Below are positions 17,378 through 46,255 of a stretch of DNA of 64,000 bases, one piece after another (positions within the stretch are counted from its first letter, which is position 1; each line of letters starts with the position of its first letter). The stretch is from an uncultured bacterium (GTDB lineage: Bacteria > Hydrothermota > UBA3073 > NMUJ01), in assembly GCA_965612795.1 (NCBI GenBank), contig CBFDTI010000001.1, positions 5,116 to 69,115 of the forward strand, written 5' to 3'. A model generated the notes under the pieces. The model was given only the letters and a program-made list of their open reading frames with translations, did not search any database and was not told the origin of the DNA. The position numbers and the translations under genes were made by a program.

Positions 17378-17506
17378 ATGATCAGCTCGAAAATGAACTT
17401 CATAGTAGCAATCCACGATATAACCGATGGCATAAAAAGATATGCAAATGGTACTTCATCACCATGGAGACACCCAACTACCGTGCAACGAAGAAGTTCA
17501 GCGTGA
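17378..17506 (+). CDS. Putative small protein (MISSKMNFIVAIHDITDGIKRYANGTSSPWRHPTTVQRRSSA)
   Basis: GGGGGAGG SD 5 nt upstream of ATG 17378, immediately after the stop of the membrane-protein gene. Confidence 0.2.
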   Translation: MISSKMNFIVAIHDITDGIKRYANGTSSPWRHPTTVQRRSSA

Positions 17507-17595
17507 TTCGATAATACATTATCACAAGATACGTCACGGTGCGATAGTTACTTGTCAACCCCATCCATAGCTTTACTTTTACACCTCATACCAAC

Positions 17596-18987
17596 ATGCA
17601 GATACTTAAGGTTAAACTCCAGAATGTCTCATCCTACCATGCACAGAATGATACACGCATACGTTATGTGTTGGAATTCATTTCCACCTTCTACGGTATA
17701 AGGGTAGAACCTTCACCCGAAGGCATTACCCTACCTACACCGCAATTTGATAGCTGGACACCCAATAACATACGTATCACTTACATCGATACTATACCCG
17801 TACTTTACACTGATCAACAACCCACCCACATAATCTCCACCACCGGCCATGTAGGGTTCGACCTCATAGGTGCAACGTTTTTCTTGTTATCACTATCTGA
17901 GGAGCTGAAATTCCACACCCCACGGTTCCGCTCATCACTCTCTTTACTACACAAGTTTGACCTACTCCATACACCTCTTATCAACTTATGGCTCATACAG
18001 ATAGAGCATCACCTACGTACCAAAGGTTACCACCTACCACCCCGCTGGCCTACCGGCAAATTCGCAATCGTACTAACCCATGACATCGATCGTCTCGGTA
18101 CGGTTGAGTTCACCCTTCACGGTAAACTACGTCGCATCATGTTACTCAACACCATGAAGCATCTCACCCTCCGCACATTATTACGTAGTGTAGGCGCACC
18201 CCTCCATTACCTACTGTGTAAGGGGCTCAGAATGTACTCACCCACCATCGTAAACCCTGACATCGGGGATTGGATTACTTGCGAATCCCAATACGGGTGG
18301 CGGTCGACTTTCTTCATTTTCCCCGATAAAGTCTACCCACGAGATCCATCCGACCCCATCTACACCTATCACGATAAAACGCTATTCCATGGCAAACCCA
18401 TAAAGCTTATCGATTTATTGCGAGAACTCAAACCCACCCACGATATAGGTTTACACGCCAGCCGCCACAGTTATAATAACTTCAACACCTTACGCATGGA
18501 AAGACGACGCCTTTCGCAACTCATAGGCAATATAGATGCCGTTCGTCACCACTACATAAGCTTCGACGCGTATCAATCACCCGCCACACTTGAAGCTGCT
18601 GGTTTCACCATAGATTCGAGCCTCGGTTGGCCTGATAATGTTGGCTTCCGTGCCGCTGTAGCATATCCGTTCAAGCTATGGGATCACACCCGTATGCGTT
18701 CCACAAACGTATGGGAGGTACCACTCACATTACAGGAATCCATAGCCATCGTACATTTAGGGCTTGACACACCCGCTAAATTATGGTCGCTAATCGATAA
18801 ACTCATACATGAAGCCTCCCGTAGCACCGGTATGCTTACATTGTTGTTCCATCCCGCCGCTATCGATATGCCGTTCGATACCTTCAAATTCTATCGCGAG
18901 TTACTTACCCGCTTATCGCACGAAGATGCATGGATCACCACCATCTCAGGTATTAAAGATTGGCTATCACAGCGTACACCACAATGA
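17596..18987 (+). CDS. Putative polysaccharide deacetylase-like (NodB/CE4-type) protein
   Basis: FAIVLTHDIDRLG and GLHASRHSYNNF motifs resemble NodB motif 1/2; weak assignment from memory. Confidence 0.45.
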   Translation: MQILKVKLQNVSSYHAQNDTRIRYVLEFISTFYGIRVEPSPEGITLPTPQFDSWTPNNIRITYIDTIPVLYTDQQPTHIISTTGHVGFDLIGATFFLLSLSEELKFHTPRFRSSLSLLHKFDLLHTPLINLWLIQIEHHLRTKGYHLPPRWPTGKFAIVLTHDIDRLGTVEFTLHGKLRRIMLLNTMKHLTLRTLLRSVGAPLHYLLCKGLRMYSPTIVNPDIGDWITCESQYGWRSTFFIFPDKVYPRDPSDPIYTYHDKTLFHGKPIKLIDLLRELKPTHDIGLHASRHSYNNFNTLRMERRRLSQLIGNIDAVRHHYISFDAYQSPATLEAAGFTIDSSLGWPDNVGFRAAVAYPFKLWDHTRMRSTNVWEVPLTLQESIAIVHLGLDTPAKLWSLIDKLIHEASRSTGMLTLLFHPAAIDMPFDTFKFYRELLTRLSHEDAWITTISGIKDWLSQRTPQ

Positions 18988-20144
18988 CACACGTGGTAAT
19001 GTTCGTATTTAACCCAGTCCTCCACGATAGCCGCGTACTACGTGAGGCACGCTCACTTGTACGGTTTGGCTACAAAGTGAAACTCATTGGCACCACAGAA
19101 GCTACCCGACCCGAAACCATCCCACTTGATGGTATCGAAATACTCAGGTTACCATTGCTCAGATTACCCATAATTTCAGCCTCCGACATCAAATTCCTAC
19201 GTGTCCTCCTGTACGGGCTAAGAATATTATGGTACAGCATACAGGTACGCAACACAAAAGCTGACATCTACCACATACACGATTTCGAACCCCTACTAAT
19301 CGGATATCTGTTAGCCAAGAAATATCACTCCAAGCTTGTGTATGATTCACACGAACTCTATTGGGGACGCTTCCGGTTACCTTGGTGGGGCGAACCCCTC
19401 CGTAAGTTACTTACGAAACTGGAATCCTTTCTTGCACATCGTACAGATTATGTTATCACCGTAAGTCATGGCCTGTCACAGGAACTATCGACCCGCTTCA
19501 AAACAAAAAGTATAGCCGTGGTACGCAACATATCTGAGGTATCCCATACCCACTGTACACGTAACTTACGTAGGGATGCAAACATACCAGATGACGCCAA
19601 AATCATCGTCCATACTGGTAACCTGCTACCGATGGAGAGGTGCTTCGACGAAATCATAACCTCCATGCAGCTACTACCAGCCAACATATACCTTGTATTC
19701 GTTGGCACAGGTAAACTGCTACCACATCTATTACAACTATCCAAACAGCTCAACCTAAGCTCAAGGGTTAAATTCCTCCCCCCCGTGCACCCACACGAGG
19801 TCGTCCCTTATATTAAGGAATGTGATATAGGGATCGTCAGCACACGCCCGGATACGCCATCATCCTATCATGCGTTACCTCATAAGCTGTTCGAATACAT
19901 AGCTGCTACCCTACCAGTAGTAGCTGGTAACCTACCCGAAGTTCAAACCATTGTCAAAAGTTACGATATAGGGGTTATCTTCCACTCTTACGATCCTCAC
20001 TCCATAGCAGCTGCTATTAAAAAGGCTTTAGAGCCTACCAACTACATCAGGTTTAAACATAACATAAGGAAAGCACACAAGGAATTGAACTGGCAGGTTG
20101 AACAACACAAGCTCCTATCAGTTTATGAAAATCTAACACGTTAG
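18984..20144 (+). CDS. Glycosyltransferase, GT-B fold (family 4-like)
   Basis: C-terminal EX7E-type region LFEYIAATLPVVAGNLPEVQTIV...; start moved to ATG 18984 (MTHVVMF) from TTG 18960. Confidence 0.75.
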   Translation: MTHVVMFVFNPVLHDSRVLREARSLVRFGYKVKLIGTTEATRPETIPLDGIEILRLPLLRLPIISASDIKFLRVLLYGLRILWYSIQVRNTKADIYHIHDFEPLLIGYLLAKKYHSKLVYDSHELYWGRFRLPWWGEPLRKLLTKLESFLAHRTDYVITVSHGLSQELSTRFKTKSIAVVRNISEVSHTHCTRNLRRDANIPDDAKIIVHTGNLLPMERCFDEIITSMQLLPANIYLVFVGTGKLLPHLLQLSKQLNLSSRVKFLPPVHPHEVVPYIKECDIGIVSTRPDTPSSYHALPHKLFEYIAATLPVVAGNLPEVQTIVKSYDIGVIFHSYDPHSIAAAIKKALEPTNYIRFKHNIRKAHKELNWQVEQHKLLSVYENLTR

Positions 20145-20480
20145 GTGTAACGCTGCCACCGTCCGCTTACTTTCCGCTATTTTGTTATAGGTTTTGACCG
20201 CCTCCGCTGTTATCTGTATATGAAGTTCGATACCACGTTTATTGCATACATCCACCACTTCCTTCGCTACATCCATCACCCCATACGCACCCGTACCTAT
20301 AATCAACACCTCAGGCCGTTCATCCAGTATATGCTCGATATCACACATCTGCAGGTAATGCCCCTGCTCACGCCACCACGATGATTGTACACGATCGGGA
20401 AATATAATTATATCACGTGTGTAAACCTCACCATCAACAATTATTCTACCAAACTCGTAGTGCTCCACCTTGGGTGCCAT
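20133..20480 (-). CDS. Mth938-like domain protein (DUF498 family)
   Basis: FGRIIVDGEVYTRDIII...PEVLIIGTGAYGVM...GIELHI pattern typical of Mth938 domain. Confidence 0.55.
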   Translation of the reverse strand: MAPKVEHYEFGRIIVDGEVYTRDIIIFPDRVQSSWWREQGHYLQMCDIEHILDERPEVLIIGTGAYGVMDVAKEVVDVCNKRGIELHIQITAEAVKTYNKIAESKRTVAALHLTC

Positions 20481-20490
20481 AGGATATATA

Positions 20491-20545
20491 AGCCCAGGAC
20501 CGGACTCGAACCGGCGACCTTCCCGCCAAGGCGGGATGCTCTACC
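20491..20545 (-). pseudogene. tRNA-like 3' remnant with intact T-arm and acceptor 3' strand, anticodon arm replaced by a CCCGCC-TT-GGCGGG hairpin, and 5' end missing
   Basis: RC reads GGTAGAGCATCCCGCCTTGGCGGGAAGGTCGCCGGTTCGAGTCCGGTCCTGGGCT; 3' half identical to tRNA-Thr at 20802-20874 except the anticodon region, which cannot form a 5-bp stem/7-nt loop. Confidence 0.5.
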
Positions 20546-20792
20546 GTTTTTGATGGCATATTAGCTCCTTGAATGCTCTACCTCCCTTGTAACGTTTCAA
20601 TAAAGTCTCACGACGTCGAGCCTCCCTTAACGTATCGTACTTTTCATAATAAATCAACCTCAACGGGCGCCTTGCTTTCAGTGATTTGGTCTTACCGCTG
20701 TTGTGCTCTTTTATCCGACGGTTCAAGTTCTTGGTAACCCCAATGTAATATCCATTATCCTTGAGGCTTTGCAGTACATATACATAGTACAT
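20541..20792 (-). CDS. GIY-YIG nuclease-superfamily small protein (YhbQ/UPF0213-like), 83 aa
   Basis: MYYVYVLQSLKDNGYYIGVTKNLNRRIKEHNSGK = GIY-YIG motif. First ATG is at 20792. The ORF-track TTG start at 20843 would overlap the tRNA-Thr gene and is rejected. Confidence 0.75.
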   Translation of the reverse strand: MYYVYVLQSLKDNGYYIGVTKNLNRRIKEHNSGKTKSLKARRPLRLIYYEKYDTLREARRRETLLKRYKGGRAFKELICHQKR

Positions 20793-20801
20793 AAAACATA
20801 A

Positions 20802-20874
<73 letters not shown>

Positions 20875-20882
20875 ATTTACTA

Positions 20883-20909
20883 AATTTACATCAGCTTGTT
20901 TTATGTCAA
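20883..20909 (-). promoter_or_regulatory. Promoter of tRNA-Thr (TTGACA -N15- TAAATT, 8 nt before tRNA 5' end)
   Basis: Minus-strand TTGACA at 20909..20904, TAAATTTAG at 20888..20880; identical architecture repeated upstream of each tRNA-like unit. Confidence 0.4.
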
Positions 20910-20938
20910 CAATTTAAATCCACAAGTATTTATTTAAT

Positions 20939-21000
20939 GGGACTCGAATCGGCGACCTTCCCGCCAAGGCGGGATGCTCTACCCGCTGAGCTACCTGGGC
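20939..21000 (-). pseudogene. tRNA-like 5' remnant: first 26 nt identical to tRNA-Thr, same aberrant CCCGCC-TT-GGCGGG anticodon-region hairpin, T-arm 3' strand and acceptor 3' strand missing
   Basis: RC reads GCCCAGGTAGCTCAGCGGGTAGAGCATCCCGCCTTGGCGGGAAGGTCGCCGATTCGAGTCCC then diverges (ATTAAATAAA). Confidence 0.5.
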
Positions 21001-21008
21001 ATCTACTA

Positions 21009-21035
21009 AATTTACATCGGTCTATTTCATGTCAA
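21009..21035 (-). promoter_or_regulatory. Promoter copy upstream of tRNA-like remnant (TTGACA -N15- TAAATT)
   Basis: TTGACA 21035..21030, TAAATT 21014..21009, 8 nt from remnant 5' end. Confidence 0.35.
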
Positions 21036-21071
21036 TAATTCACGACTTTCACAGTCTAAAGGACTTTTAAA

Positions 21072-21113
21072 GGGACTCGCACCGGCGCCCTCTTCCCACT
21101 GAGCTACTTGGGT
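21072..21113 (-). pseudogene. Third, more degraded tRNA-like remnant (acceptor + D-arm fused directly to T-arm-like segment, no anticodon arm)
   Basis: RC ACCCAAGTAGCTCAGTGGGAAGAGGGCGCCGGTGCGAGTCCC. Confidence 0.3.
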
Positions 21114-21120
21114 ATAACCA

Positions 21121-21146
21121 AATTTACATCGACCCCTATATGTCGA
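21121..21146 (-). promoter_or_regulatory. Promoter copy (TCGACA -N14- TAAATT) upstream of third tRNA-like remnant
   Basis: TCGACA 21146..21141, TAAATT 21126..21121. Confidence 0.3.
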
Positions 21147-21205
21147 TATAAGTTACAAAACAAATTGACCATCCCCTAACCGCTTTATCTTTAATTTGTG
21201 CGTTA

Positions 21206-21802
21206 ATGACGATATGTTCGGTTAACGAAGGTATCACACGTGCAATAGATTTGATCCATACTCTACAGACAACCCCTGTAATCATAGGTATCGCTGGCGG
21301 CTCATGTGCCGGTAAGACACTAATCGCCCAGCAGATAGCCACCAGAGTAGATGGTGTCATCCTTCCGCTCGACGATTATTATGTAGGTATCGATCACATA
21401 CCTGATAATAATTTTGACCACCCCTCAGCTATGGAATTAACCTTACTCAAACACCACCTACATCTATTAAAACAGGGTAAACCCATCCACAAACCCATCT
21501 ATGATTTTGTCACCCACAAGCGGGTAGGTTACCACCCATTTACACCTTCGCACGTAATCATCACCGAAGGCCTCTACGCATTACACCAAATATTTCGCAG
21601 CATACTCGACGTAAAGATCTACGTTGAAGCTCGTGACGCCACCCGTTTAGCACGTCGGTTAGTACGTGACATGTCAGAACGTGGCCGCACCCGTGAAAGC
21701 GTCCTCCGTCAGTGGTATACCACCGTTTTACCCATGCACAGAACTTACGTTGTACCTCAAAAATCCTACGCCGACATTATCATTGTAAACGATGGAGATT
21801 GA
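21206..21802 (+). CDS. udk: Uridine kinase / PRK-family nucleoside kinase
   Basis: P-loop IGIAGGSCAGKT, LPLDDYY motif, overall Udk-like length and layout. Confidence 0.8.
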   Translation: MTICSVNEGITRAIDLIHTLQTTPVIIGIAGGSCAGKTLIAQQIATRVDGVILPLDDYYVGIDHIPDNNFDHPSAMELTLLKHHLHLLKQGKPIHKPIYDFVTHKRVGYHPFTPSHVIITEGLYALHQIFRSILDVKIYVEARDATRLARRLVRDMSERGRTRESVLRQWYTTVLPMHRTYVVPQKSYADIIIVNDGD

Positions 21803-22364
21803 CAAAATCTACCTGCTCAAAAATTTGCGTGGCATCATACATTTCGATCCCCACCTCAACGTAACCACCGAATGGACCTGGCTACGTAAAAAATTCAGAT
21901 ACAGGAAGCTTGGCATCTCACAACATCTGTTGGAGCTCAGCGGGTTACCCACACTTTCGATGCTGGAGATACTCACCCCCACACTAAAGTTATCGGATCT
22001 ACCTTCACCAGCCAGCGATTCACTTGCACTTGCCACGGAGTACGTAACGCCTCTTATAATCCTAAAGTCGGCAAGCCTCAAACCCTACGAACCTCTTGTA
22101 CTCCATAAGGTGACAACTGTAGAGAGACTACCCGATATCGAGTTACGTCGCAATATACGGTTGGTAAACTATTCCATCATAGACTATTGTCGTGATATCA
22201 TCCACGCGGATGCTGCCACCCGCCTTAAGATCGTACAGGATGATGCGAAACGCTTCTGGCGTGTCCAACCCGGCACCATCCCCCTTATAGTATGGCTCGA
22301 TTTAGCCAAACTCAAATCCCCACCCTTAAAGTTGGTCATCCCCTCGGTAATAATCGACCTCTAA
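21792..22364 (+). CDS. Putative CYTH-domain (triphosphate tunnel metalloenzyme-like) protein
   Basis: N-terminal MEIDKIYLL matches the CYTH EIE+KFL start motif; overlaps udk stop by 11 nt (possible split of a PRK-CYTH fusion). Confidence 0.4.
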   Translation: MEIDKIYLLKNLRGIIHFDPHLNVTTEWTWLRKKFRYRKLGISQHLLELSGLPTLSMLEILTPTLKLSDLPSPASDSLALATEYVTPLIILKSASLKPYEPLVLHKVTTVERLPDIELRRNIRLVNYSIIDYCRDIIHADAATRLKIVQDDAKRFWRVQPGTIPLIVWLDLAKLKSPPLKLVIPSVIIDL

Positions 22365-22379
22365 CACCAGAAATACGGG

Positions 22380-24476
22380 TCAATTACCCAGCATCCCCAG
22401 TTGCCACATTATGAATAACAGATTGTCAGCATAAGATTCTACCACCTTACGTAATGGCTTACCCGCCCCATGTCCAGATTTCGGCTCTATGTATAACAAT
22501 ACAGGTCTATCGGGGGTTGCCAGCTCCTGCATCTTAGCTGCCATCTTCATTGCATGCATAGGGTGTACCCTCGTATCAGATTCGGCTGTCTTAAACAACA
22601 CCGCTGGATAGATTCTACCTTTCTCCACATGATGGTACGGCGAATACGCATACAGCCACTTAAATGCGTTCGGATCCTCAGGATCACCATACTCCGGTAT
22701 CCACAGGTGTGCTACCAAGAACTTGTGATACCTCAACATATCAAGTAACGGTACACTACAGATCACCACCCTAAACAGCTCCGGTCGCTGTGTCATCGCC
22801 GCCCCCACCAGCAACCCACCATTACTTCCACCCATAATTGCCAACTTATCAGGTTTAGTATACCCCACATCTATCAAGTATTCAGCAGCTGCTATGAAAT
22901 CATCGAACACATTCTGCTTTTTATCCAACATACCCGCCCTGTGCCACTCCTCACCATACTCGTCACCCCCACGTATACCCGCATGTGCATATACACCGCC
23001 ACGTGATAACCATGGTAACAACGTTCTCACAAAATATGGGCTCATACCCAACCCGAACCCACCATACCCCGTGAGTATGGTAGGGTTGTTACCATCGAGC
23101 ACGATCCCTTTCTTGTGGATCACGTACATTGGTACCTTCGTACCGTCCTTCGATTCGTAGAAGATGAGATCTTGCTCATACTCCAAGGGATCGAACTCCA
23201 CCTCTTGTTGGAACACCCGTTCAGCTTCAAACGTTTTAAGGTTCAGCCTGTATATCGTGGGTGGATAGAAGAACGACATAAATCGATAGTATAGCTCATC
23301 GCTATCCCATCGCCCGCTGAAACTCACACTCCCATACGTAGGTAGCTGCACCTCATGTACCAACTTACCTTCCGTTGTGTACACAAGTAACCTATAATAC
23401 GTATCTTGCTTTACAGTGATCACTAATTTACCTCCCACTATACCGAACTGCTTTATAACTCCCTTACCTTCAGGTATAATTTCTTGCCACTCTCCGATAT
23501 CCGGCTTATCTACTGTTGTACGCAATATCCGATACCTTGGTGCCTTATAGTTAGTCTTTATGAAAATCGTATCCCCTATAACATCCGCAGAGAATATTGC
23601 TTCCATACCGATTGCGATCGGGATTAATCTTTCACTCGATGGCTCCATAACATAGAGATCGTTTTGCGTCCACCCCTTATGTACAGTGATGATCACCCAG
23701 TTACCATCCGACGATAGCCTTACACCCGGTATCTCCTTTTCGGATAATGTTTCACCAAACACCAACCTATCATTCTCCCACGGTTCGCCCATCTTGTGCA
23801 TAAATATCATTGGCCGAAACTTTTCACTCTCCGTATTCCTCGTGTAGTAAAACCTGTCACCCTCTTTCATCCATGCAATACTTGCCCATTTCGCATCCGG
23901 TATAGTATCAGCAATAGGTTCACCTCTCTCCACATCCATAATGTAGAGTGTACTGTTTTCACTACCACTCTTCGATTTACCATATGCCACATATCTACCA
24001 TCCACCGATGGATAATACCAATCCATCGCCACCGTCCCATCCTCACTGAATTTGTTCGGATCAATAACCACCCTACCGCTATCAGGTACAAATCTACTCT
24101 CTACCACGTAAAGTATGGGATGGTTCTCCTTCCCTTTACGCTTCGTATAGAAGAAACGTTCACCATATATTGCAGGTAATGATACCACCTCCGCCTCAAA
24201 TATCTTCATCAGCTCATCGATTAACTCTCTCCTCCCAGGTAGTGAATCCAATATCCCACGTGTAAGCGCATTCTGTTGCTCTATCCACTCTCTTACTCTA
24301 CTGTCATCAAGGTTTTCCAACCACCTATATGGATCCACTATCTCAACCCCAAACATCGTATCCACGACGTTAACTTTAGGTGTCTTCGGATACTGTATCA
24401 TGATACCCCCTACAATTACTGATAATATCCATCCACACATCTCATCCAAATTTACTCTAAGTCTTCCCGACATCAA
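22380..24476 (-). CDS. Prolyl oligopeptidase (S9A family serine peptidase)
   Basis: Beta-propeller N-domain followed by alpha/beta hydrolase with nucleophile elbow MGGSNGGLL and C-terminal ...HGAGKP motifs. Confidence 0.85.
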   Translation of the reverse strand: MMSGRLRVNLDEMCGWILSVIVGGIMIQYPKTPKVNVVDTMFGVEIVDPYRWLENLDDSRVREWIEQQNALTRGILDSLPGRRELIDELMKIFEAEVVSLPAIYGERFFYTKRKGKENHPILYVVESRFVPDSGRVVIDPNKFSEDGTVAMDWYYPSVDGRYVAYGKSKSGSENSTLYIMDVERGEPIADTIPDAKWASIAWMKEGDRFYYTRNTESEKFRPMIFMHKMGEPWENDRLVFGETLSEKEIPGVRLSSDGNWVIITVHKGWTQNDLYVMEPSSERLIPIAIGMEAIFSADVIGDTIFIKTNYKAPRYRILRTTVDKPDIGEWQEIIPEGKGVIKQFGIVGGKLVITVKQDTYYRLLVYTTEGKLVHEVQLPTYGSVSFSGRWDSDELYYRFMSFFYPPTIYRLNLKTFEAERVFQQEVEFDPLEYEQDLIFYESKDGTKVPMYVIHKKGIVLDGNNPTILTGYGGFGLGMSPYFVRTLLPWLSRGGVYAHAGIRGGDEYGEEWHRAGMLDKKQNVFDDFIAAAEYLIDVGYTKPDKLAIMGGSNGGLLVGAAMTQRPELFRVVICSVPLLDMLRYHKFLVAHLWIPEYGDPEDPNAFKWLYAYSPYHHVEKGRIYPAVLFKTAESDTRVHPMHAMKMAAKMQELATPDRPVLLYIEPKSGHGAGKPLRKVVESYADNLLFIMWQLGMLGN

Positions 24477-24494
24477 GTTGACATCACTTCTTGT

Positions 24495-25457
24495 ATGATT
24501 ACTTTGTTATCACACATAACGATGGGCAATCCACTCAAACTATCAATCGTCATCCCCGCCTACAATGAAGAGGATAACATTGAGCCACTCCTCGAAAAAC
24601 TCTCCTCCGTAGTGACAACTGTCGATTTCCCTATCGAGGTAGTAATTGTTGACGATGGTAGCACGGACAACACGCTCGCAGTTGCCCAACGTTGTGCCAC
24701 CCGCTACAATTTTGTCAAAGTCATCTCACAACCCCATATGGGGTTAACACCTGCCCTCATACGTGGGTTTGAAGCCTCCACTGGTGATGTATTTATGTTC
24801 TTACCTGCCGACCTACAAGTTATGCCGGATGAGATACCGAAATTCATGTCACTCATCAACTCAGGTTATGACATCGTCTGCGCTTGGTACCACCCCATAA
24901 AGCCACCTCCGTTCACAAAATCCCTTGCCTCCAAAATCTACAACGCATTATCACGCAAAATGTTCGGCATAACAGTACATCACATGAACTCCGCCAAAGC
25001 CATCCGCCGTACCGTGATGGAGAACATCCCCTTACGGCCCGACTGGCATCGCTACATCGTAGCAATAGCACACACTTACGGTTATAAAGTGGGTGAGGTC
25101 AAGGTCAACCTCTACCCCCGTCACTCCGGTAAGAGCAAGTTCGGCTTCTGGCGTATACCCATTGGGATGTTAGATCTCATAGCTGTTAAGCTACAGCTCA
25201 AATTCCTACGTAAACCTCTACTTTTTTTCGGCCTGTGGGGTGGCATATCACTCCTAATCGGTATCATCATAGGTATCGTCGCCCTGTACATGAGGTTCAT
25301 CTTACACCATGGCCTGCGTGTACTCGCATACCCTACTATACTCTTTACACTTGCTGGCCTTATACTTATCACCATCGGCATATTCGGTGAGCTAACCGCC
25401 GGCCTAAGGGATGAACTCCGCGTATTGATGCGCAAACTCGACCGCCTAACTAAGTGA
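24495..25457 (+). CDS. Family-2 glycosyltransferase (dolichyl/polyprenyl-phosphate sugar transferase-like) with C-terminal TM helices
   Basis: LSIVIPAYNEEDNI ... IVDDGSTDNT DXD-type motifs; true start may be ATG 24522. Confidence 0.8.
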   Translation: MITLLSHITMGNPLKLSIVIPAYNEEDNIEPLLEKLSSVVTTVDFPIEVVIVDDGSTDNTLAVAQRCATRYNFVKVISQPHMGLTPALIRGFEASTGDVFMFLPADLQVMPDEIPKFMSLINSGYDIVCAWYHPIKPPPFTKSLASKIYNALSRKMFGITVHHMNSAKAIRRTVMENIPLRPDWHRYIVAIAHTYGYKVGEVKVNLYPRHSGKSKFGFWRIPIGMLDLIAVKLQLKFLRKPLLFFGLWGGISLLIGIIIGIVALYMRFILHHGLRVLAYPTILFTLAGLILITIGIFGELTAGLRDELRVLMRKLDRLTK

Positions 25458-26381
25458 CCGTTTCCTCATAATATATGCATGTTCACCATCAGGATAGTAG
25501 TTTAAACATGTTCTCTCAATTTCGAACCCCAACTTCTTATACAACCTCTGTGCGATACGGTTAGAGACTCTAACTTCAAGATAAACCTCATATCCTTCAT
25601 ATTTGTTAAGCAATTTCCTCATCAACCTCTCACCCACCCCCATCCCCCTATAATCAGGATGTACCGCTATATTTGCTATGTGAATTTTGTACCCATCTTC
25701 AACTTCAAACACCACATATCCAATGACTTGCCCCTCTTTTGTTGCCACCCATACGTATCTACCGTCACTACGGATGAAATATGCAAACGCCGCCATCGGC
25801 CATGGCATCTTAAATGACACCTTCTCTATCGCATGTATACGAGTAACATCCTCTATTGTTGCCTCCCTGATCTCAAACCCTATGATCCTGTATAGTTTCG
25901 ACTCACATATCGGACAGAACGTATCCATTTTACGGTCGGTATCGTAGATAGAGTTAGAAAAACACATCACACATTTTGTATCCCGACAATGTTCCATCAT
26001 GTGTAAATGTCCCACTTCATGCACCACTTCCTTACGTACACGTGCCAAAAATATCTGCGGTTCATCGTGTACTAACCTTGCCAACGCCACCATCGCACGT
26101 CTACCCGCTACATCTGCTAACCCGAACACAAAGTTTAACCCCTCCACATACGCATCATATGGTAAAATACACAATTTATAATCCCCGTTTGCAGGTGGTG
26201 CTACCATCCCAAGCAATGCTTCCGCATTGTATTGCCCTCTATCCATATTGTAAATACTGTTAGGGATTTGAATCGGCTCCATCACCTCCGTCACGGTGAT
26301 GAAACGTTTCCTCAAGATTTTCTCAACCTCATCAATGGTGGTACGTTCGAAATATCTATCTACGGGGATGACAAATATCAT
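25446..26381 (-). CDS. Fusion protein: archaemetzincin-like zinc peptidase (M54) N-domain + GNAT acetyltransferase (RimI-like) C-domain
   Basis: HEVGHLHMMEHCRDTKCVMCF...CPICE (HExxHxxGxxHC + Cys4 zinc-binding arrangement of archaemetzincins) followed by GNAT motifs (IANIAVHPDYRGMGVGERLMRKLL). Confidence 0.6.
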   Translation of the reverse strand: MIFVIPVDRYFERTTIDEVEKILRKRFITVTEVMEPIQIPNSIYNMDRGQYNAEALLGMVAPPANGDYKLCILPYDAYVEGLNFVFGLADVAGRRAMVALARLVHDEPQIFLARVRKEVVHEVGHLHMMEHCRDTKCVMCFSNSIYDTDRKMDTFCPICESKLYRIIGFEIREATIEDVTRIHAIEKVSFKMPWPMAAFAYFIRSDGRYVWVATKEGQVIGYVVFEVEDGYKIHIANIAVHPDYRGMGVGERLMRKLLNKYEGYEVYLEVRVSNRIAQRLYKKLGFEIERTCLNYYPDGEHAYIMRKRSLS

Positions 26382-27100
26382 CTAACGATGACACTTTCCA
26401 CATATTGCTTTAAGATTGGGACAAATGCTTCCACCTCATGTGGCAAGTATATTTTCCCCTCCTTGATACGTTCATCTAATGTCTTCACAGTATGCACTAT
26501 CTGTAACACATAGCGTTTAGCACCCTTAATCCACTCACCTATCTTCTTTGCCTCCTCTGTGTTGAAAAACATCGGCAACACTGAAGTCCTAAACTCATAA
26601 TCAATACCACTCTCCATTATCATTTTAATACTTTTGTCGATTTTTTCTATATCTACCGGCACACCTGCCACCTCTGCATACCTATCTTTCGCCCCTTTTA
26701 TGTCCATTGCAATAAAGTCTATCAACTTATCATTTATGAGCTGTGCCAACACCTCCGGGAACGCACCATTCGTATCAATCTTTACAGGATACCCCTTAGA
26801 CTTTGCTCTACGGATAAAATCTATTATCTCCTGATGTAGTAGCGGTTCACCTCCAGTTATTGCAATCCCATCTATGAGCCCCTTGCGACGTTCAAGGTAC
26901 CTGAATACTTCCTCTTCATCGATATCAGGCAATTTCTCCCACCCTATGACAAGCTCCGGGTTATGACAGTATGGACACCTAAAGTTACACCCCCCTGTAA
27001 ACACGATCGTCGCTATCCTGCCAGGAAAGTCTATCAAGCTCACTTTCTGCCATCCTTTAAATTTCATCGTTTTAAAATATCCATCCCCTTCATTAGTCAA
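26378..27100 (-). CDS. Radical-SAM activating enzyme (glycyl-radical-enzyme activase / NrdG-PflA-like family)
   Basis: GGCNFRCPYCHN CxxxCxxC cluster motif and ITGGEPLL. Confidence 0.65.
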   Translation of the reverse strand: MTNEGDGYFKTMKFKGWQKVSLIDFPGRIATIVFTGGCNFRCPYCHNPELVIGWEKLPDIDEEEVFRYLERRKGLIDGIAITGGEPLLHQEIIDFIRRAKSKGYPVKIDTNGAFPEVLAQLINDKLIDFIAMDIKGAKDRYAEVAGVPVDIEKIDKSIKMIMESGIDYEFRTSVLPMFFNTEEAKKIGEWIKGAKRYVLQIVHTVKTLDERIKEGKIYLPHEVEAFVPILKQYVESVIVR

Positions 27101-27142
27101 TTAACTTCTTGTCATTTCATCATAACTGCTATCTTTAAACAT

Positions 27143-28648
27143 ATGGAACACTTACATCCGCTCGAGGTTAAAGTCTTACGCGTATTTAAACAACATCAAC
27201 AAATAGTTGAATCAAAAATCCCCGAACTCTCAGGTATCGATCCAAAACAACTACCAAAGGTCATCAGCTGGTTACTCACAAAAAACTTACTCGAAGTTAC
27301 CGCCGAAAACATCACCCGCAAAGTACGGTTAACTGAACTCGGTAAACAGTTTCGTGACACTGGTATACCCGAGCTACGTATCTTAGATGCTGTTAAAAAG
27401 GGTGCACGTCCATTATCCGAGCTACGTAAACTTGTAAGTGACGCCCTATTTGGTAAAGCCATCGGTAGGCTTAAGCAACTAGGTGCGATAACTATTACTG
27501 ACGATAAAGCCTCATTTGTAAAACTACCGGATGAACTCACCAGCCTACAGAATATCTTAACCAAAATAGGTGATACAAGTTACCCATGGGATAAACTATC
27601 ACCCATGGAACAGGCTCTCATCACCCAATACTCACGTAAGCGTGGCAAACAACGTGGCATCTTCCGTGTCGACGAATACCGTGACCGCATATTTTCACTC
27701 ACTCCAACCGGCAAACAACTACTTACCCAGTTACCGGAAGAGATATCCGAAGAGATCTCACAGCTCACCCCCGACCTCCTACGTGACGGTAGCTGGCGTA
27801 CCTATAAGCTCAGGCCATATAATTTAATGCTACCCCCCAAACCCATCGTGGTAGGGCATCGTCACCCCTACTCACTATTTCTGTCCAAAGTACGTCAAAA
27901 GCTACTTGCGATGGGGTTTGAAGAGATGAAGGGCCCGCTCGTTGAGTACGAGTTCTGGAACATGGACGCCCTCTATATGCCACAGTTCCATCCCGCCCGT
28001 CAGATACACGACGTATATTTTGTAAAATCACCCAAATACGGCAAACCACTATCCCTACACATACTCGAAAGAGTAGCCGCCGTCCATCGCAACGGCGCTG
28101 ATACCGGGTCAAAGGGTTGGCGTTACGAATTCGATTACCAACGTGCACACAGGTTAATCCTCAGGAGCCAGGGTACTGCATTATCAGCACGTACACTTGC
28201 AAGCAACCCACACATCCCCGGTAAGTACTTCGCTATAGCCCGATGTTTCCGTTACGATAAAATTGACGCTTCACATTTACCTGACTTCTATCAAATCGAA
28301 GGCATCGTCATCAGCCCACACGTAAACCTACGCACACTGTTGGGGTTGCTCAAACTATTTGCTGAGGAGTTCGCACGCACCACGGAGGTGGAGTTCCGTC
28401 CCGGCTATTTCCCATTTACTGAACCATCGGTTGAGCTACACGCCAAAATCGACAACAAATGGGTAGAACTCGGTGGTGCCGGCATCTTCCGTAAAGAGGT
28501 AACCTATCCACTTGGGGTAGAGCTTCCCGTCCTCGCATGGGGGTTGGGCCTCGACCGTATGGCTATGTCTGCACTCGAAATAAAGGATATAAGATTGTTG
28601 TTTTCACGTGACCTTAGTTTCTTAAGACAAAGAGTTAAAAGACTATAA
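27143..28648 (+). CDS. pheS: Phenylalanyl-tRNA synthetase alpha subunit, archaeal/eukaryotic-type (~500 aa)
   Basis: Class II core motifs (FRxE-like ...CFRYD..., GLGLDRMAM), long N-terminal extension; start moved to ATG 27143 (MEHLHPLEV) from upstream TTG-type ORF-track start. Confidence 0.85.
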   Translation: MEHLHPLEVKVLRVFKQHQQIVESKIPELSGIDPKQLPKVISWLLTKNLLEVTAENITRKVRLTELGKQFRDTGIPELRILDAVKKGARPLSELRKLVSDALFGKAIGRLKQLGAITITDDKASFVKLPDELTSLQNILTKIGDTSYPWDKLSPMEQALITQYSRKRGKQRGIFRVDEYRDRIFSLTPTGKQLLTQLPEEISEEISQLTPDLLRDGSWRTYKLRPYNLMLPPKPIVVGHRHPYSLFLSKVRQKLLAMGFEEMKGPLVEYEFWNMDALYMPQFHPARQIHDVYFVKSPKYGKPLSLHILERVAAVHRNGADTGSKGWRYEFDYQRAHRLILRSQGTALSARTLASNPHIPGKYFAIARCFRYDKIDASHLPDFYQIEGIVISPHVNLRTLLGLLKLFAEEFARTTEVEFRPGYFPFTEPSVELHAKIDNKWVELGGAGIFRKEVTYPLGVELPVLAWGLGLDRMAMSALEIKDIRLLFSRDLSFLRQRVKRL

Positions 28649-30267
28649 TGCCTACAATAGTTGTACACAAAGAAGATTTCCTTACTCTGTTAGGTCACGT
28701 ACCAGATACCGACGAGCTAGCACGTGCCAAATCCCAATTAGTCGACATATTAGATGACGAACTCAAGATAGAGATAGCAGATACCAACCGCCCCGATCTA
28801 TGGAGTGCCGAAGGTATCGCACGTGAGCTATCAGGCCCCAAGGAGTACAGCTTCTTCGACACCTCCCCTCAATACGAGGTTATCGTCTCACCTGAAGTAC
28901 TCGAAGTACGCCCCTACATAGGTGCGTTCCTCGTCAAAGACATAAAATTAACCGACATTTCGCTACGTAGTATTATACAAAGTCAAGAAAAGCTCAGCGA
29001 CCTATACGGTAGAGGTAGACGTGACATAGCCATCGGCATATACGATGCATCAAAGATTGTCTTCCCCATACATTACCGTGGTGTACACCCATCAGAGGTA
29101 CGGTTCACGCCACTCGATATGACCGAGGAGCTATCACTCGATGAGATATTAGATAAACATCCAAAAGGCATCGAATACGGCCACCTAATCAAGTCGTGTA
29201 AATTCTATCCGTTACTTGTAGACAACGATAACAAGGTGCTATCGTTCCCCCCCATAATAAACAGCCGTTACATTGGTGAAGTCAAACCCGCTCACACATA
29301 TTTATTCTGCGAAACCACAGGCACTAACCTCGAAATGGTGCTACTCGTAACCAATATCCTTGCAACCAACTTCGCCGATCGTGGTGCCCAGATATTACCT
29401 ATTTTGATAGTCTACCCCAACGGCAAGAAGGTCAAAACTCCCCAGGATATCAGCGAACCTTGGGAATTATCACCCCATGAGGTACAGGAGCTGCTCGGCA
29501 TCTCTTTAGATATGGACGAAATCCACTCCACTCTACGGGCTGCTAATTACAGGATTAAAGATGGCAAACTCTATCCTCCCCCTTGGCGTGCTGATATCAT
29601 GAGTGTAGCCGATATAATCGAAGACATAGCAATACACCGTGGTTATAATACGTTTACACCAGTGGGATTGACGGATTTCACGGTAGGTCACTCCGCCCCT
29701 ATTGAGGAGCTCATCGAAGATATCCGCAACATCATGGTAGGAATAGGGTTTGAAGAGATACTCTCACATGTACTCACATCAAAAGATAACCTCATATACC
29801 GTATGAACCTACCCGAACGTAAAATCATAGAAATCGATAACGTCATGAGCTTATCCTATTCTGTTCTACGTGATACAATAATACCGTCACTGTTGGAGGT
29901 TGAATCCCTAAGCAGCAAATCACTATACCCACATAAGTTGTTCGAAGTAGGTGAAGTCGTAATTTACGATCCAGACTCACCTGAATACTCCCGTACAGTG
30001 AACCATCTCGCTGCAATAGTAGCACATCCGCAAGCAAATTTCTCCGAAACACATAGCTATCTAAATGCACTATTTCATCAACTTAACCTCACTTACAAAA
30101 TAGAGCCAACCTCACACCCTTCTTACATATCCGGTAGGGTGGCCAAAATTCTCGTCAATAATAACGAAATCGGCATCATCGGCGAACTACACCCGGAAGT
30201 ACTTACCCGCTGGAACATTAAAATACCTGTAAGTGCATTTGAGATAGAAATAGATGCTATCGGTTAA
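28648..30267 (+). CDS. pheT: Phenylalanyl-tRNA synthetase beta subunit, archaeal-type (539 aa, lacks bacterial N-terminal domains)
   Basis: B3/B4 and B5-like regions; length typical of archaeal PheT; start overlaps pheS stop. Confidence 0.8.
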   Translation: MPTIVVHKEDFLTLLGHVPDTDELARAKSQLVDILDDELKIEIADTNRPDLWSAEGIARELSGPKEYSFFDTSPQYEVIVSPEVLEVRPYIGAFLVKDIKLTDISLRSIIQSQEKLSDLYGRGRRDIAIGIYDASKIVFPIHYRGVHPSEVRFTPLDMTEELSLDEILDKHPKGIEYGHLIKSCKFYPLLVDNDNKVLSFPPIINSRYIGEVKPAHTYLFCETTGTNLEMVLLVTNILATNFADRGAQILPILIVYPNGKKVKTPQDISEPWELSPHEVQELLGISLDMDEIHSTLRAANYRIKDGKLYPPPWRADIMSVADIIEDIAIHRGYNTFTPVGLTDFTVGHSAPIEELIEDIRNIMVGIGFEEILSHVLTSKDNLIYRMNLPERKIIEIDNVMSLSYSVLRDTIIPSLLEVESLSSKSLYPHKLFEVGEVVIYDPDSPEYSRTVNHLAAIVAHPQANFSETHSYLNALFHQLNLTYKIEPTSHPSYISGRVAKILVNNNEIGIIGELHPEVLTRWNIKIPVSAFEIEIDAIG

Positions 30268-31399
30268 CCACTTTATCAAAGATTGATGCCAACTTACCCA
30301 CAACATGTGCTGCCTGGAACCCCTCAATCGTACCTCTCCATGGGTAATTATCAGAGTAGAACGCATTGTAATACTTTAGTATCAAACGTTTTATCCCATC
30401 AATATCGTCTGGATCCACTCCCTCACCCATACCATACTTTTCAACCAACTCACGTGCCCTCACCCCTCTGGGTGCTATCGCTATAACTGGATGCGGCATA
30501 CCCATATACTCGAACAACTTACATGTTATCATAAAGTGTGGCTCATACTTACCCACAAGCAACAGTAGCAACACACTGTTTTCGTAGAACCCCTTAATCC
30601 TATGATATGGCACATACGCGTAGTGTTTAATATACGGTCGTCGAGGCAGCGGTACCTCCAAATGCCCTACAAAGTTAACCTCTATTTTATCGCTATCTAT
30701 TTTACCTTCATCTATCAACTCATCGATCCCTTTAATAAATGTGTAGGGAGGTGCTAATTTACGTATCACCCCCGGATAGAGTATGGAGAATATCTCCATT
30801 TTAGGTACCTCTATAGTCATATCATATGGTGTAGGTATTATCTCAACCTTATCGTATCCATTGACATATTTGCGAAAAGTCTCATCCAACACCACAATAC
30901 GGTCGCTCACCCCATACACCCAGCGTTTAATCCAGTTATTGCTTACCCATGGGTCACGCAAGTCTATCACCAACGGCACCCCTGTTAACGTTTTCAAGAT
31001 CGCCCCTATTATGAGGTCAGTCACTGGTGGTGAGGTTGCAAATATCAGCTCTATTCTTTTGCGTTTGATCATATCGTAACCTTTGTAGATTGCAAACGGT
31101 ATCCACCCCATCTCCTTTTCTATCCATCGCAATAATTTAGGTCGTGCCTTACCACCGGTAAGTTGCGTAACACCCAAAAGTCTCAGTATCCGCAGCAGGT
31201 CGAGCGACTCAGTAAAACACACATCTTTAACAATGAGCAACGAACCATCATACGCATAGTAAGCACCAGGTTTGGGTGTCAAAACAACCGGTTCGTATCC
31301 ATATTCAGGAAGGTATTTCTCAAACCTCACCACCCTATGTACACCTGATAACCCCAATGGCGGGTGATAGTAAGCGATCAACAACACCCTACGCATCAT
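30257..31399 (-). CDS. Putative GT-B fold glycosyltransferase
   Basis: N-terminal LLIAYYHPPLGLSGVHR...GYEPVVLT and C-terminal FEYMGMPHPVIAI segments resemble GT4-like enzymes; weak. Confidence 0.45.
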   Translation of the reverse strand: MMRRVLLIAYYHPPLGLSGVHRVVRFEKYLPEYGYEPVVLTPKPGAYYAYDGSLLIVKDVCFTESLDLLRILRLLGVTQLTGGKARPKLLRWIEKEMGWIPFAIYKGYDMIKRKRIELIFATSPPVTDLIIGAILKTLTGVPLVIDLRDPWVSNNWIKRWVYGVSDRIVVLDETFRKYVNGYDKVEIIPTPYDMTIEVPKMEIFSILYPGVIRKLAPPYTFIKGIDELIDEGKIDSDKIEVNFVGHLEVPLPRRPYIKHYAYVPYHRIKGFYENSVLLLLLVGKYEPHFMITCKLFEYMGMPHPVIAIAPRGVRARELVEKYGMGEGVDPDDIDGIKRLILKYYNAFYSDNYPWRGTIEGFQAAHVVGKLASIFDKVVNR

Positions 31400-33462
31400 T
31401 TTGTAACAGCGAGCTTACCCCGTACCCAACGTCCATCAGCCAACTTAACAATAACTTGATAGACTCCCACCGGTATAGCATCCAATTCCTTCACATGTAT
31501 TATGGGGGAATCACCCTGTCCCGCAATAGAATATATTAACCTCCCACTCAACGTGTATAGATACATGGTTTGCCACACATAAGGGGTGACGATTGTCAAC
31601 GTACTATGTTTACCCACAACAAAAGGATTAGGATATATTTCAACTTTCGTAATCTCCCAACTTGGTGACAACGTAACCTTTGATATACCCCCACGTGTGG
31701 GTATCCACATTGAAAACCTCTCATTATCCCATACAATATCACGTGTAAAGTCCACATATTCCGAAGCCACCAACCCATCACCTATTGTGTAATTAATGAG
31801 TTCACCTGAACTTGGGTTAAGTACACTCACACCCTGCATATTCACCAGCATCCAGATTCTACCTTCCCAATCCTCTTCCAACGCCAGTATGTCATTGCTT
31901 GGCAGGTCACTATTGGTTGAGGTGTACTCACCGATCACCTTACCATCTCTTATCCGGAATACACCCGCACGTGTAGCCACCCATATATCACCAGCCCTAT
32001 CACATATGAGGTCCGTAACCCATGTAGTGGGTAGCAGGTTGCTCAGTATTTCAAACCCTCCATCCTTATGTATACATGCAATACCATACATGTGGCTACC
32101 TACCCACATATTTCCGTGACGATCCTCGGCAAACGCACCAGGTGTAACAAATTGCCACGTGTTGATAACCGAATCGTCCACAATCTCAAAGATATATCCA
32201 CCATTTGTACCTACCCACAGGTGATCGTTTGCATCTACGTACATACCCCAAACTATATTTGAGCCACTACCTGGTAAATGGAACCTTTTTAAAGAATCAC
32301 TTTCCGGGATATACTTTGCTAACCCTACATCATCACCCCAAAAGCTTATCCATAGGTTACCCTTACTATCACTCACGATATATCTTGCACGCTTAATTTC
32401 ATCTTCCCCAGCAAGATAATGCGCATAATACCATTTACCTTCTACCTCATATATTCGGGTGATGGCAGGCTCCCATGCCGTAAAATGTACCGCCCATATG
32501 TCACCGTTGGGGCTCAACGCTATACTGCTTGTGATATTGCTTACCATCGATGTAGGAAAACTATCCTTCAACAACGTATCCGTTGTCCAAGCTACCAACC
32601 CACATTTGAAACTACCCACCCATACTACACTATCTAAAATCACTAAATGGCCTTGCCCCCTTGGTGCATAAAGTAACGGCGTAAGTGATGGCCACCATGT
32701 ACCGTTCCACTTTTTAACACCCCACCTCGTAGAAGCCAACAGCAAAGTATCACCCTTACAGAAATCGAACACCTCCGGATACGCATTCACAAGTTGCGAA
32801 CTTCCCCTTACATACATCACTATCCCAGAGTCTGTACCCACCCATAAAGTGTCATTACACCACTCCAATGCCGTAATCCTAGCTTCCCTAACTTCAACCG
32901 GTAGATCCGTCTTTGGTATCACATGCCAGCCGTTACCTTCAACATCCGTTACACCGATACCGTCTTCTGTACAGAACCACAACGAATCGTTATGATAATA
33001 AACACGCAATACTTTATTATCCAACGGTACAGGTAGGTTCCAATAGCTTATTCTCTCAATATCGGATAAGTTAGCAGCAAGTTCCAATACCGTGACAGGT
33101 GCATCATCCTCAGTAGCTATCCATACTCTTCTACCTGCTACTGCCATTGAAGAGAACCTGTCACTTTGTGGTAACCCCTGTGCGTTCGTGTAACTGTACG
33201 ATATACCATGCGTGAAGATTACCAACCCCTTACTACGTGTAAGACACCACACCCCAGACGAGTCTACAAATATATCCTGTACGTTATTTTCGGTAAGCCC
33301 ATCCACATTTGTTAAATGTTGTAACTCATCCGTATCAGGGTTATAAATTACCACACCACCCTCGGTTGCTGCATAAATACAAGTTTCGTAATGAAAAATA
33401 TCATTCACTTTATAAGTAGAGAGAAAGCTCTCCCATACGATCCCCAATACAAACAATATCAT
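31396..33462 (-). CDS. Secreted beta-propeller protein (two-component-regulator-propeller-like repeats) with T9SS C-terminal sorting domain
   Basis: Repeated W/Y-containing blade motifs; C-terminus YPNPFVVGKHSTLTIV...GVYQVIVKLADGRWVRGKLAVTK matches the Por secretion tail (YPNPF start). Confidence 0.6.
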   Translation of the reverse strand: MILFVLGIVWESFLSTYKVNDIFHYETCIYAATEGGVVIYNPDTDELQHLTNVDGLTENNVQDIFVDSSGVWCLTRSKGLVIFTHGISYSYTNAQGLPQSDRFSSMAVAGRRVWIATEDDAPVTVLELAANLSDIERISYWNLPVPLDNKVLRVYYHNDSLWFCTEDGIGVTDVEGNGWHVIPKTDLPVEVREARITALEWCNDTLWVGTDSGIVMYVRGSSQLVNAYPEVFDFCKGDTLLLASTRWGVKKWNGTWWPSLTPLLYAPRGQGHLVILDSVVWVGSFKCGLVAWTTDTLLKDSFPTSMVSNITSSIALSPNGDIWAVHFTAWEPAITRIYEVEGKWYYAHYLAGEDEIKRARYIVSDSKGNLWISFWGDDVGLAKYIPESDSLKRFHLPGSGSNIVWGMYVDANDHLWVGTNGGYIFEIVDDSVINTWQFVTPGAFAEDRHGNMWVGSHMYGIACIHKDGGFEILSNLLPTTWVTDLICDRAGDIWVATRAGVFRIRDGKVIGEYTSTNSDLPSNDILALEEDWEGRIWMLVNMQGVSVLNPSSGELINYTIGDGLVASEYVDFTRDIVWDNERFSMWIPTRGGISKVTLSPSWEITKVEIYPNPFVVGKHSTLTIVTPYVWQTMYLYTLSGRLIYSIAGQGDSPIIHVKELDAIPVGVYQVIVKLADGRWVRGKLAVTK

Positions 33463-46254: not shown

Positions 46255-46255
46255 A

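Follow-up and report, generated by a model that had tools for sequence, protein, structure and literature searches.

The 64,000-nucleotide stretch of contig CBFDTI010000001.1 analysed here (its whole length is called the window) encodes, at 25446..26381 of the minus strand, a single protein in which an M54 archaemetzincin domain is followed by a RimI-type N-alpha-acetyltransferase domain of the GNAT family. The host is a heat-spring-type bacterium of the candidate phylum WOR-3. Each of the two domains is an ordinary member of its family, and their combination is a rare architecture that is present, unremarked, in public databases. We are highly confident that the fusion is genuine and functional. 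It is selectively maintained and, by analogy with known enzymes, may be a bifunctional protein, the two domains of which work in sequence on one protein N-terminus, cleaving and then acetylating it; we regard this as a serious possibility that falls a little short of being probable.

The fused gene starts with ATG, contains no internal stop and comprises 936 nt, corresponding to 311 codons and the stop codon at 25446..25448. This single open reading frame (ORF) of 311 residues, matching both families, agrees with the sequence-only reading of this DNA, which had placed the two modules in one polypeptide. The possibility raised by the same reading, that a sequencing error had joined two genes, is answered by comparison with other assemblies and with an ortholog. 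The gene shows 0 differences in four further assemblies (one from ENA, two from JGI, and one from Logan), and its neighbours there are the same genes. The ortholog (protein P0002 of locus L001) has 86% protein identity and 118 nucleotide differences, contains neither a frameshift nor a stop, and is a second species-level variant of the fusion. Its 90% cluster holds 28 member sequences, and nearly all of those read are 311 residues long. Between the two variants, the ratio of nonsynonymous to synonymous substitution rates (dN/dS, Nei-Gojobori) is 0.16 overall; the M54 half has 0.15, and both the GNAT half and the junction (residues 155-185) have 0.17. Purifying selection therefore acts on the two halves and on the join between them. 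In addition, inspection of the sequence found no in-frame methionine at the domain boundary for separate translation of the GNAT domain. The source of the DNA is metagenomic, but nothing was found that speaks for an assembly or sequencing artefact joining two genes. The five independent assemblies, the intact frame of the ortholog, the length of nearly all cluster members read, and the low dN/dS lead us to reject this explanation as extremely improbable.

The M54 domain occupies residues 1-166 (25884..26381, minus strand), as delineated by the models PF07998 and NF033823, by Protein Data Bank (PDB) matches, and by its fold. The Pfam model Peptidase_M54 (PF07998) matches residues 15-164 with E 3e-27 and 96.3 bits against a cut-off of 24.4. 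Sequence matches of the N-terminal half in the PDB include the archaemetzincins (AmzA) of M. kandleri (2x7m, E 7e-29) and A. fulgidus (3zvs, E 1.5e-26), with values for 2x7m, 3zvs, and 4axq ranging from 1e-26 to 7e-29. Moreover, the M54 half of the AlphaFold2 model superposes on 3zvs in Foldseek with a template modelling (TM) score of 0.92 and a root-mean-square deviation of 1.4 A. The translation contains the zinc signature block HEVGHLHMMEHCRDTKCVMCFSNSIYDTDRKMDTFCPIC (25905..26021, minus strand), laid out as H121-E122-x-x-H125-x-x-M128-x-x-H131-C132-x4-C137-x-M139-x16-C156-x-x-C159. In this block lie the features that define M54 enzymes (PMC3427221): the ligands of the catalytic zinc and the general base, together with the Met-turn and the four cysteines (Cys4) of the structural zinc site. 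When the protein is aligned with stand-alone archaemetzincins (23 sequences in all), no variation occurs at H121, E122, H125, H131, C132, C137, M139, C156, or C159; Met139 is separated from the third cysteine by 16 residues, not 17. Fold, profiles, and catalytic residues place this half in the archaemetzincin family, and zinc-dependent peptidase activity is predicted from them. The M54-type zinc and Cys4 block reported earlier from the letters alone is thus recovered by Pfam, NCBIfam, PDB matches, and invariant residues. The domain search that had been proposed as its check finds both Peptidase_M54 and Acetyltransf_1 and leaves the N-terminal domain with M54.

The GNAT domain covers residues 167-311 (25449..25883, minus strand), again delineated by profiles (TIGR01575 and PF00583), PDB matches, and fold. 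Acetyltransf_1 (PF00583) matches residues 181-286 with E 2.7e-23 and 82.9 bits (Pfam cut-off 20.7), and the NCBIfam rimI equivalog TIGR01575 matches residues 179-305 with 113.3 bits (cut-off 86.4). Among PDB sequences, this half matches Sulfolobus SsArd1 (4lx9, E about 4e-18 to 3e-17) and the RimI structures 9mto, 5isv, and 2cnm (E 6e-13 to 6e-10), as well as the eukaryotic Naa10, Naa20, and Naa50, which score weaker than SsArd1. In Foldseek, the TM score is 0.85-0.88 to 9mto, 5isv, and 4pv6, and 0.79-0.88 over the RimI/Ard1 structures. The acetyl-CoA loop of GNAT motif A, which binds the pyrophosphate, follows the pattern R/Q-x-x-G-x-G/A, and the translation contains it as R245-G-M-G-V-G250 (25632..25649, minus strand). 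G250 is invariant among the fused proteins. So are H234 and E269, which align with H88 and E127 of SsArd1, the residues mutated in PDB entries 6ag4 and 6ag5 (6ag4 being H88A/E127A). The family model, the cofactor loop, the two aligned residues, and the fold together confirm the complete RimI-like GNAT domain noticed earlier at the C-terminus. The sole other GNAT gene in the window (57389..58258) reaches 22 bits on the rimI model and is rejected as a true RimI, given the cut-off of 86.4.

The two domains meet at the junction PICESKLYRIIGFEIREATI (25854..25913, minus strand, assigned from the translation), where the first GNAT strand follows immediately on the last M54 helix and the linker is essentially nil. 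The residues here read C156-P-I-C159-ESKLYRII-GFEIREA. An AlphaFold2 model built from a 60-sequence alignment has a mean pLDDT (local distance difference test, as predicted) of 95.3 and a predicted TM score (pTM) of 0.76. In this model, helix 157-167 lies directly before strand 170-173, and the pLDDT of residues 161-170 averages 86; the two domains are thus modelled as rigidly joined with almost no linker. The junction aligns with that of the archaeal fusion P0137 with a one-residue gap. No PDB chain covering both halves was found among the Foldseek matches.

The same fusion was then sought in protein databases, as the sequence-only reading had suggested. An exhaustive HMMER scan of 1.84 billion representatives, standing for about 15 billion proteins, yielded 3,965 proteins with E <= 1e-10, and among the top 150 of these only three extend over both domains: the window's own cluster, P0137 (321 residues, 36% identity), and P0213 (a 223-residue fragment). 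P0402 and P0403 came from a second search, in which a profile of the fused proteins was run on 5.8 billion clusters; their NCBI label, where present, is Candidatus Hydrothermarchaeales. No relatives between 86% and about 47% identity appeared in the searches of about 15 billion proteins. The fusion is therefore known from two lineages only, the WOR-3 bacterium and Hydrothermarchaeales archaea. The architecture had been called unusual: it is indeed rare, but it is not unique, since it recurs in Hydrothermarchaeales (P0137, P0402, P0403, and the fragment P0213) and the corresponding gene pair occurs in several archaeal lineages. The named fused proteins (P0123, P0137, and P0402) are annotated solely as 'ribosomal protein S18-alanine N-acetyltransferase'. 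This name covers the acetyltransferase only, so the peptidase half is invisible to searches by name. In the literature searched on archaemetzincins, no fusion or link of amzA and rimI was found besides a one-line remark based on STRING (PMC4681839), in which a STRING-type prediction ties Thermococcus archaemetzincins to an N-acetyltransferase.

In the genome collection, counts refer to the best 80 M54 loci among the matches listed. By record title, 47 of the 80 are bacterial, which does not bear out the earlier statement that archaemetzincins are mainly archaeal or eukaryotic. Given a bacterial host and the frequency of M54 genes in bacteria, finding such a domain here is not odd in itself.

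Several archaea carry the two genes as separate neighbours. In L039 (Methanocellales) and L065 (a metagenome-assembled genome, MAG, of Methanobacteriota), amzA is followed by rimI as a separate, co-directional, overlapping ORF, which is why both loci were matched across both halves. Further look-ups, starting from one archaemetzincin of a Hydrothermarchaeota MAG and from the two archaeal RimI proteins with the highest scores on the fusion profile, gave an M54 gene followed by an overlapping GNAT gene in all three cases. These are loci L091 (Hydrothermarchaeota), L092/L093, and L094/L095, with overlaps of 4, 32, and 35 nt; over all archaeal pairs (L039, L065, and L091-L095), the stop/start overlaps are 4-80 nt. 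The fused archaeal locus L086 and the split archaeal loci have a common synteny, with UPF0146 upstream and UPF0058 or a DnaG-type primase downstream. Therefore, the fused and split states within this archaeal group represent one orthologous locus and are set apart by a change of frame where stop and start overlap. The two families are associated repeatedly in unrelated lineages.

The WOR-3 fusion does not group with the archaeal ones. Its M54 half has 41-44% identity to stand-alone proteins of Desulfobacterota, Chloroflexota, and Thermoproteota, and 33-36% to the archaeal pair/fusion group, the best member of which reaches similarity rank 71 of 96. Its GNAT half has 42-45% identity to RimI of Pyrococcus and Bacillota and to unnamed single sequences, and 34-38% to the pair group, with a best rank of 30 of 38. 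A pair member is the nearest neighbour of either half in 0 of 500 column bootstraps. The nearest stand-alone GNAT protein (P0148) lies in a bacterial context and the nearest stand-alone M54 protein (P0138) in an archaeal one, and near neither is there a partner gene. In addition, the UPF0146, UPF0058, and DnaG synteny is absent from the window. With both WOR-3 halves outside the archaeal pair clade, the link between amzA and rimI probably arose at least twice, and the fusion in WOR-3 is probably independent. That WOR-3 recently acquired the fusion or the pair from archaea is not supported by the distance ranks, the neighbour-joining tree, or the bootstraps. The WOR-3 gene would have arisen by merger of amzA with rimI, for which a one-nucleotide frame change in a stop/start overlap, as seen in the archaeal pairs, would suffice.

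We propose that the M54 domain would bind a protein N-terminus and trim or cleave it, exposing a new alpha-amino group, to which the GNAT domain would then move an acetyl group from acetyl-CoA. The fusion would in this way be a covalent relay of peptidase and acetylase, with a logic comparable to that of eukaryotic methionine aminopeptidase (MetAP) with NatA at the ribosome. Both the coupling of the activities on a single substrate and the sequence of the steps are inferred, as is the identity of the substrate. RimI N-acetylates Ala1 of bS18 and Ser1 of EF-Tu, each followed by a basic residue (PMC9079301), and the groove of AfAmzA suggests a basic and hydrophobic substrate (PMC3427221). Candidate substrates, by analogy with RimI, may be bS18 or EF-Tu-like N-termini. 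A search of the 64-kb window for rpsR, the gene of bS18, gave no match, a result to be read as a lead only.

A number of observations weigh against the proposed relay. The NCBIfam archaemetzincin model NF033823 (residues 2-163) is passed at the very border, with 145.2 bits for a cut-off of 145. Residue 128 is Met instead of the near-invariant Gly of the HExxHxxGxxH motif, a replacement that the sequence-only reading did not point out, and within the 23-sequence alignment the Gly is replaced in the two WOR-3 fusions only; this Gly has been termed strictly conserved among metzincins (PMC3427221). The change is unusual yet not disqualifying, because 32 of the 370 unique M54 motifs collected (about 9%) have another residue, one of them Met (P0158), the remaining 338 having Gly. 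These 32 motifs weaken the interpretation of Gly128Met as the mark of an inactivated peptidase. Moreover, the M. kandleri and A. fulgidus AmzA proteins were inactive as peptidases in vitro, which implies very stringent specificity or additional activating factors (PMC3427221), and the peptidase step is accordingly putative. The pTM of 0.76 does not prove a fixed interface between the domains. The argument for an independent origin uses p-distances and neighbour joining, at identities of about 35-45%, and no maximum-likelihood tree. Finally, a RimI-like gene lies within 6 kb in 2 of the 80 best M54 loci, leaving 78 without one, and no M54 neighbour is found at the Pyrococcus RimI gene or at three other close RimI genes. 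The closest stand-alone M54 gene likewise has no rimI partner nearby. With the pairing this sporadic, most archaemetzincins must function without a linked RimI, and a widespread linkage of amzA and rimI is not supported.

Archaemetzincins occur in archaea, in many bacteria, and in vertebrates (human AMZ1 and AMZ2), and those of prokaryotes have long been enigmatic. The fusion and the archaeal pairs name a candidate partner, a RimI/Nat acetyltransferase, and a candidate substrate class, the protein N-termini which it handles. A broader claim, which we consider doubtful, is that prokaryotic archaemetzincins are dedicated N-terminal processing peptidases that need a RimI/Nat partner for activity or substrate, and that a hitherto unrecognised cleave-then-acetylate pathway has become hard-wired in Hydrothermarchaeales and in WOR-3, hence at least twice. 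If true, it would explain why isolated AmzA is inactive in vitro despite perfect active-site motifs, and it would give a function to a family that archaea and humans have in common and whose role has been an open question since 2005. Together with the archaeal pairs, the fusion offers the first concrete clue to a possible role of prokaryotic archaemetzincins. Its value lies in being such a Rosetta-stone clue and not a new kind of system.

The bacterial nature of the host follows from other genes of the window. A bacterial class-A RNase P RNA is located at 42191..42531 (plus strand, 255 bits), and the window also encodes LonA, a bacterial-type LeuRS, PanC, FolK, MltG/YceG, a SprA-like protein, and DnaB. 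An archaeal host is rejected on the same grounds. The name of the lineage rests on the NCBI label of a member of the 86%-ortholog cluster (MCD6082259.1), 'candidate division WOR-3 bacterium', now Caldifarciminota.

Upstream of the fusion and in the same direction lies a gene resembling NrdG2-type radical SAM activases (26378..27043, minus strand). It matches TIGR02495 with 213 bits (cut-off 131) and PF04055, and contains the cluster motif CNFRCPYC. Its mechanical ORF reaches 27100, and gene callers give 221 or 229 residues. The TGA stop codon of this gene overlaps the ATG of the fusion by 4 nt (ATGA), an arrangement conserved in all six loci, that is, in the window and in L001-L005. The overlap indicates that the two genes are probably co-transcribed and translationally coupled. 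A functional tie between them may exist and is a candidate from gene position. The upstream protein has the domains Radical_SAM and Fer4_12 only, with no SPASM domain or domain for recognition of ribosomally synthesised and post-translationally modified peptides (RiPPs), and the annotated ORFs of the window include no gene for NrdD (anaerobic ribonucleotide reductase). Downstream and convergent, a GT2 glycosyltransferase gene (24495..25457, plus strand) overlaps the 3' end of the fusion by 12 nt (25446..25457), leaving no space for a terminator between the two genes. An S9 prolyl oligopeptidase gene and genes for archaeal-type PheRS alpha and beta flank the unit. Scans for consensus promoters and terminators performed no better than on shuffled sequence. 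Synteny of the window neighbours (the radical SAM, GT2, S9 peptidase, and PheRS genes) with other M54 loci was not found outside the own lineage, and tsaB, tsaD, and tsaE were not seen among the annotated neighbours.

A second recurrent neighbourhood of archaemetzincin genes may exist in other bacteria. In L008 (5992..7598), L061 (4811..7439), and L015 (618..3782), an M54 gene lies beside, or 1.6 kb from, a radical SAM gene of the AmmeMemoRadiSam system (TIGR04337, 275-308 bits), which adjoins it in the Dehalococcoidia and Ignavibacteria loci and is nearby in the Clostridia locus. Two PAC2-family genes precede the M54 gene of L008, and another radical SAM gene precedes that of L061. These loci may point to a wider tie of M54 proteins to protein-modifying radical SAM enzymes.

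The window contains other features of its own. The PheRS alpha and beta genes (26963..30267, plus strand) look archaeal-type despite the bacterial genome; the beta subunit has 539 residues with B5 and tRNA_synthFbeta domains and matches a Desulfurococcaceae ORF in L006 with E 2.7e-71. A second unusual fusion (33848..34954, minus strand, 368 residues) joins RNase HII (residues 4-201) to HIT/DcpS_C (residues 229-331), and it is also one gene in the orthologous loci L001-L003. A TPR-repeat protein (39301..40323, minus strand) has a weak match to the NatA auxiliary-subunit model PF12569 (35.7 bits versus 33.3) amid many TPR matches; this most likely reflects generic TPR similarity, and the gene is 13 kb from the Nat-type enzyme. 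Two tRNA-Ser genes with anticodons TGA and GCT are arranged head to tail at 3435..3612 (plus strand) with 1 base between them. Over the whole window (1..64000), the plus strand has 18,481 C versus 10,544 G, giving a GC skew of -0.27 (locally to -0.55), while the AT skew is about 0. The skew at third codon positions tracks the DNA strand and not gene orientation, being +0.28 to +0.59 on the coding strand of minus-strand genes and -0.13 to -0.44 for plus-strand genes. This asymmetry indicates a strong mutational bias, which is probably linked to replication.

Several other explanations of the fusion can be set beside a relay of cleavage and acetylation. The M54 domain may not be a working peptidase at all, serving as a zinc-stabilised module for recognition or docking that brings N-termini or the ribosome to the RimI domain, in the manner of CarG. 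The inactivity of AmzA proteins with complete motifs in standard assays and the occlusion of their active sites fit this possibility, as does CarG itself, a documented non-proteolytic member of the family that acts by protein-protein contacts (PMC3427221). NCBIfam holds a separate 'non-proteolytic archaemetzincin-like' model, on which the query scores a weak 74.6 bits versus a cut-off of 250, and both WOR-3 fusions carry Met for Gly128. However, Glu122 and the three His ligands are kept under purifying selection, whereas CarG has lost its Glu; a residue other than Gly occurs in 9% of otherwise canonical motifs, and the archaeal fusions retain Gly. We therefore consider a pure adaptor role unlikely. 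We give about the same low weight to a neutral merger, in which unrelated neighbouring enzymes were joined by loss of a stop codon and the product was tolerated with no functional coupling. Most genomes hold the two genes apart, and the fusion is limited to two narrow lineages. The RNase HII-HIT fusion hints at a fusion-prone or compact genome, in which gene overlaps of 4-12 nt are common, at least in the window. Yet several archaeal lineages have these two families as overlapping neighbours or as a fusion, and a bacterium has the fusion separately; the WOR-3 and archaeal halves are not closest relatives, and such recurrence is unexpected for chance neighbours. The confidently modelled, linker-free junction and the equal constraint on both halves also argue against a neutral merger.

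Two further schemes assign the domains more specific roles. N-acetylation is generally known to block aminopeptidases, and the two activities may oppose each other, with an M54 aminopeptidase removing unacetylated residues and the GNAT domain capping correct N-termini in a kinetic choice between trimming and capping. Human AMZ1 and AMZ2 have been reported as aminopeptidases preferring Ala and Arg, an activity described as needing confirmation (PMC3427221), and RimI substrates carry Ala or Ser at the first position and Arg or Lys at the second (PMC9079301). Such proofreading is entirely inferential, no system of this kind is known in prokaryotes, and we judge it very unlikely. Alternatively, the upstream radical SAM enzyme would modify a protein or peptide that M54 cleaves and GNAT caps, following a RiPP-like logic. 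The ATGA overlap in all six lineage loci and the M54 genes next to or near AmmeMemoRadiSam-type genes in three bacterial loci would suit a maturation cassette of this kind. Against it, the radical SAM protein belongs to the NrdG2-type glycyl-radical-activase equivalog and has no SPASM or RiPP-recognition domain, and no precursor-peptide gene is evident in the window, though no systematic precursor search was made. In addition, the archaeal pairs have no conserved radical SAM neighbour, and the surrounding window genes are housekeeping genes. We regard the cassette as the more improbable of these two schemes. Sequential cleavage and acetylation by the fused protein accordingly remains the reading we favour, at the tentative level given at the outset.

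The fusion can be compared with several known systems. The N-terminal 166 residues are 35-36% identical to AmzA (MEROPS M54; 2X7M and 3ZVS/4AXQ) with TM scores of 0.84-0.93, and the two agree in the HExxHxxxxxH motif of the catalytic zinc site, in the Met-turn, and in having the Cys4 site for structural zinc. Characterised AmzA proteins stand alone with about 160-195 residues, whereas the C-terminal helix of the M54 domain in the window protein runs into the GNAT domain. The window protein further differs in its Met for Gly in HExxHxxGxxH and in its bacterial host. CarG of Myxococcus xanthus is likewise a bacterial protein of M54 fold, which works via partners and depends on its Cys4 zinc site (PMC3427221). 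Unlike CarG, the window protein retains the catalytic Glu, and its score stays far below the cut-off of the CarG-type model. On the acetyltransferase side, the C-terminal 145 residues pass the rimI equivalog and resemble RimI (2CNM, 5ISV, and 9MTO) and Ard1 (SsArd1 4LX9 and T. volcanium 4PV6) in the RGMGVG loop, the equivalents of SsArd1 H88 and E127, and the fold. These characterised enzymes are single-domain proteins, in contrast to the window protein with its N-terminal peptidase domain, and the extended loop of about 11 residues in SsArd1 is absent here, leaving a gap in the alignment.

The closest counterparts in architecture are the Hydrothermarchaeales fusions P0137, P0402, and P0403, which have the same domain order, 321-324 residues, and a junction that differs by the one-residue gap. 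They are only 32-35% identical to the window protein, archaeal, provided with the canonical Gly, and embedded in the UPF0146/UPF0058/DnaG synteny. Being close relatives of neither WOR-3 half, they probably have a separate origin. The archaeal pairs (L039, L065, and L091-L095) contain the same families in the same order and on the same strand, and their overlaps suggest coupled expression, but they encode two polypeptides and are archaeal. In logic only, the window protein also resembles the relay of MetAP and NatA, in which a metallopeptidase exposes an N-terminus and the RimI-homologous GNAT Naa10 acetylates it. The title of PDB entry 9f1c describes MetAP1 and NatA solved together on the ribosome, and Naa10 is a significant match to the C-terminal domain in both structure and sequence. 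The difference lies in the peptidase and in the mode of assembly: MetAP belongs to the unrelated fold and family M24, and MetAP and NatA, as individual proteins, are arranged by the ribosome, NAC, and Naa15, whereas in the WOR-3 protein the two domains are joined in one chain.

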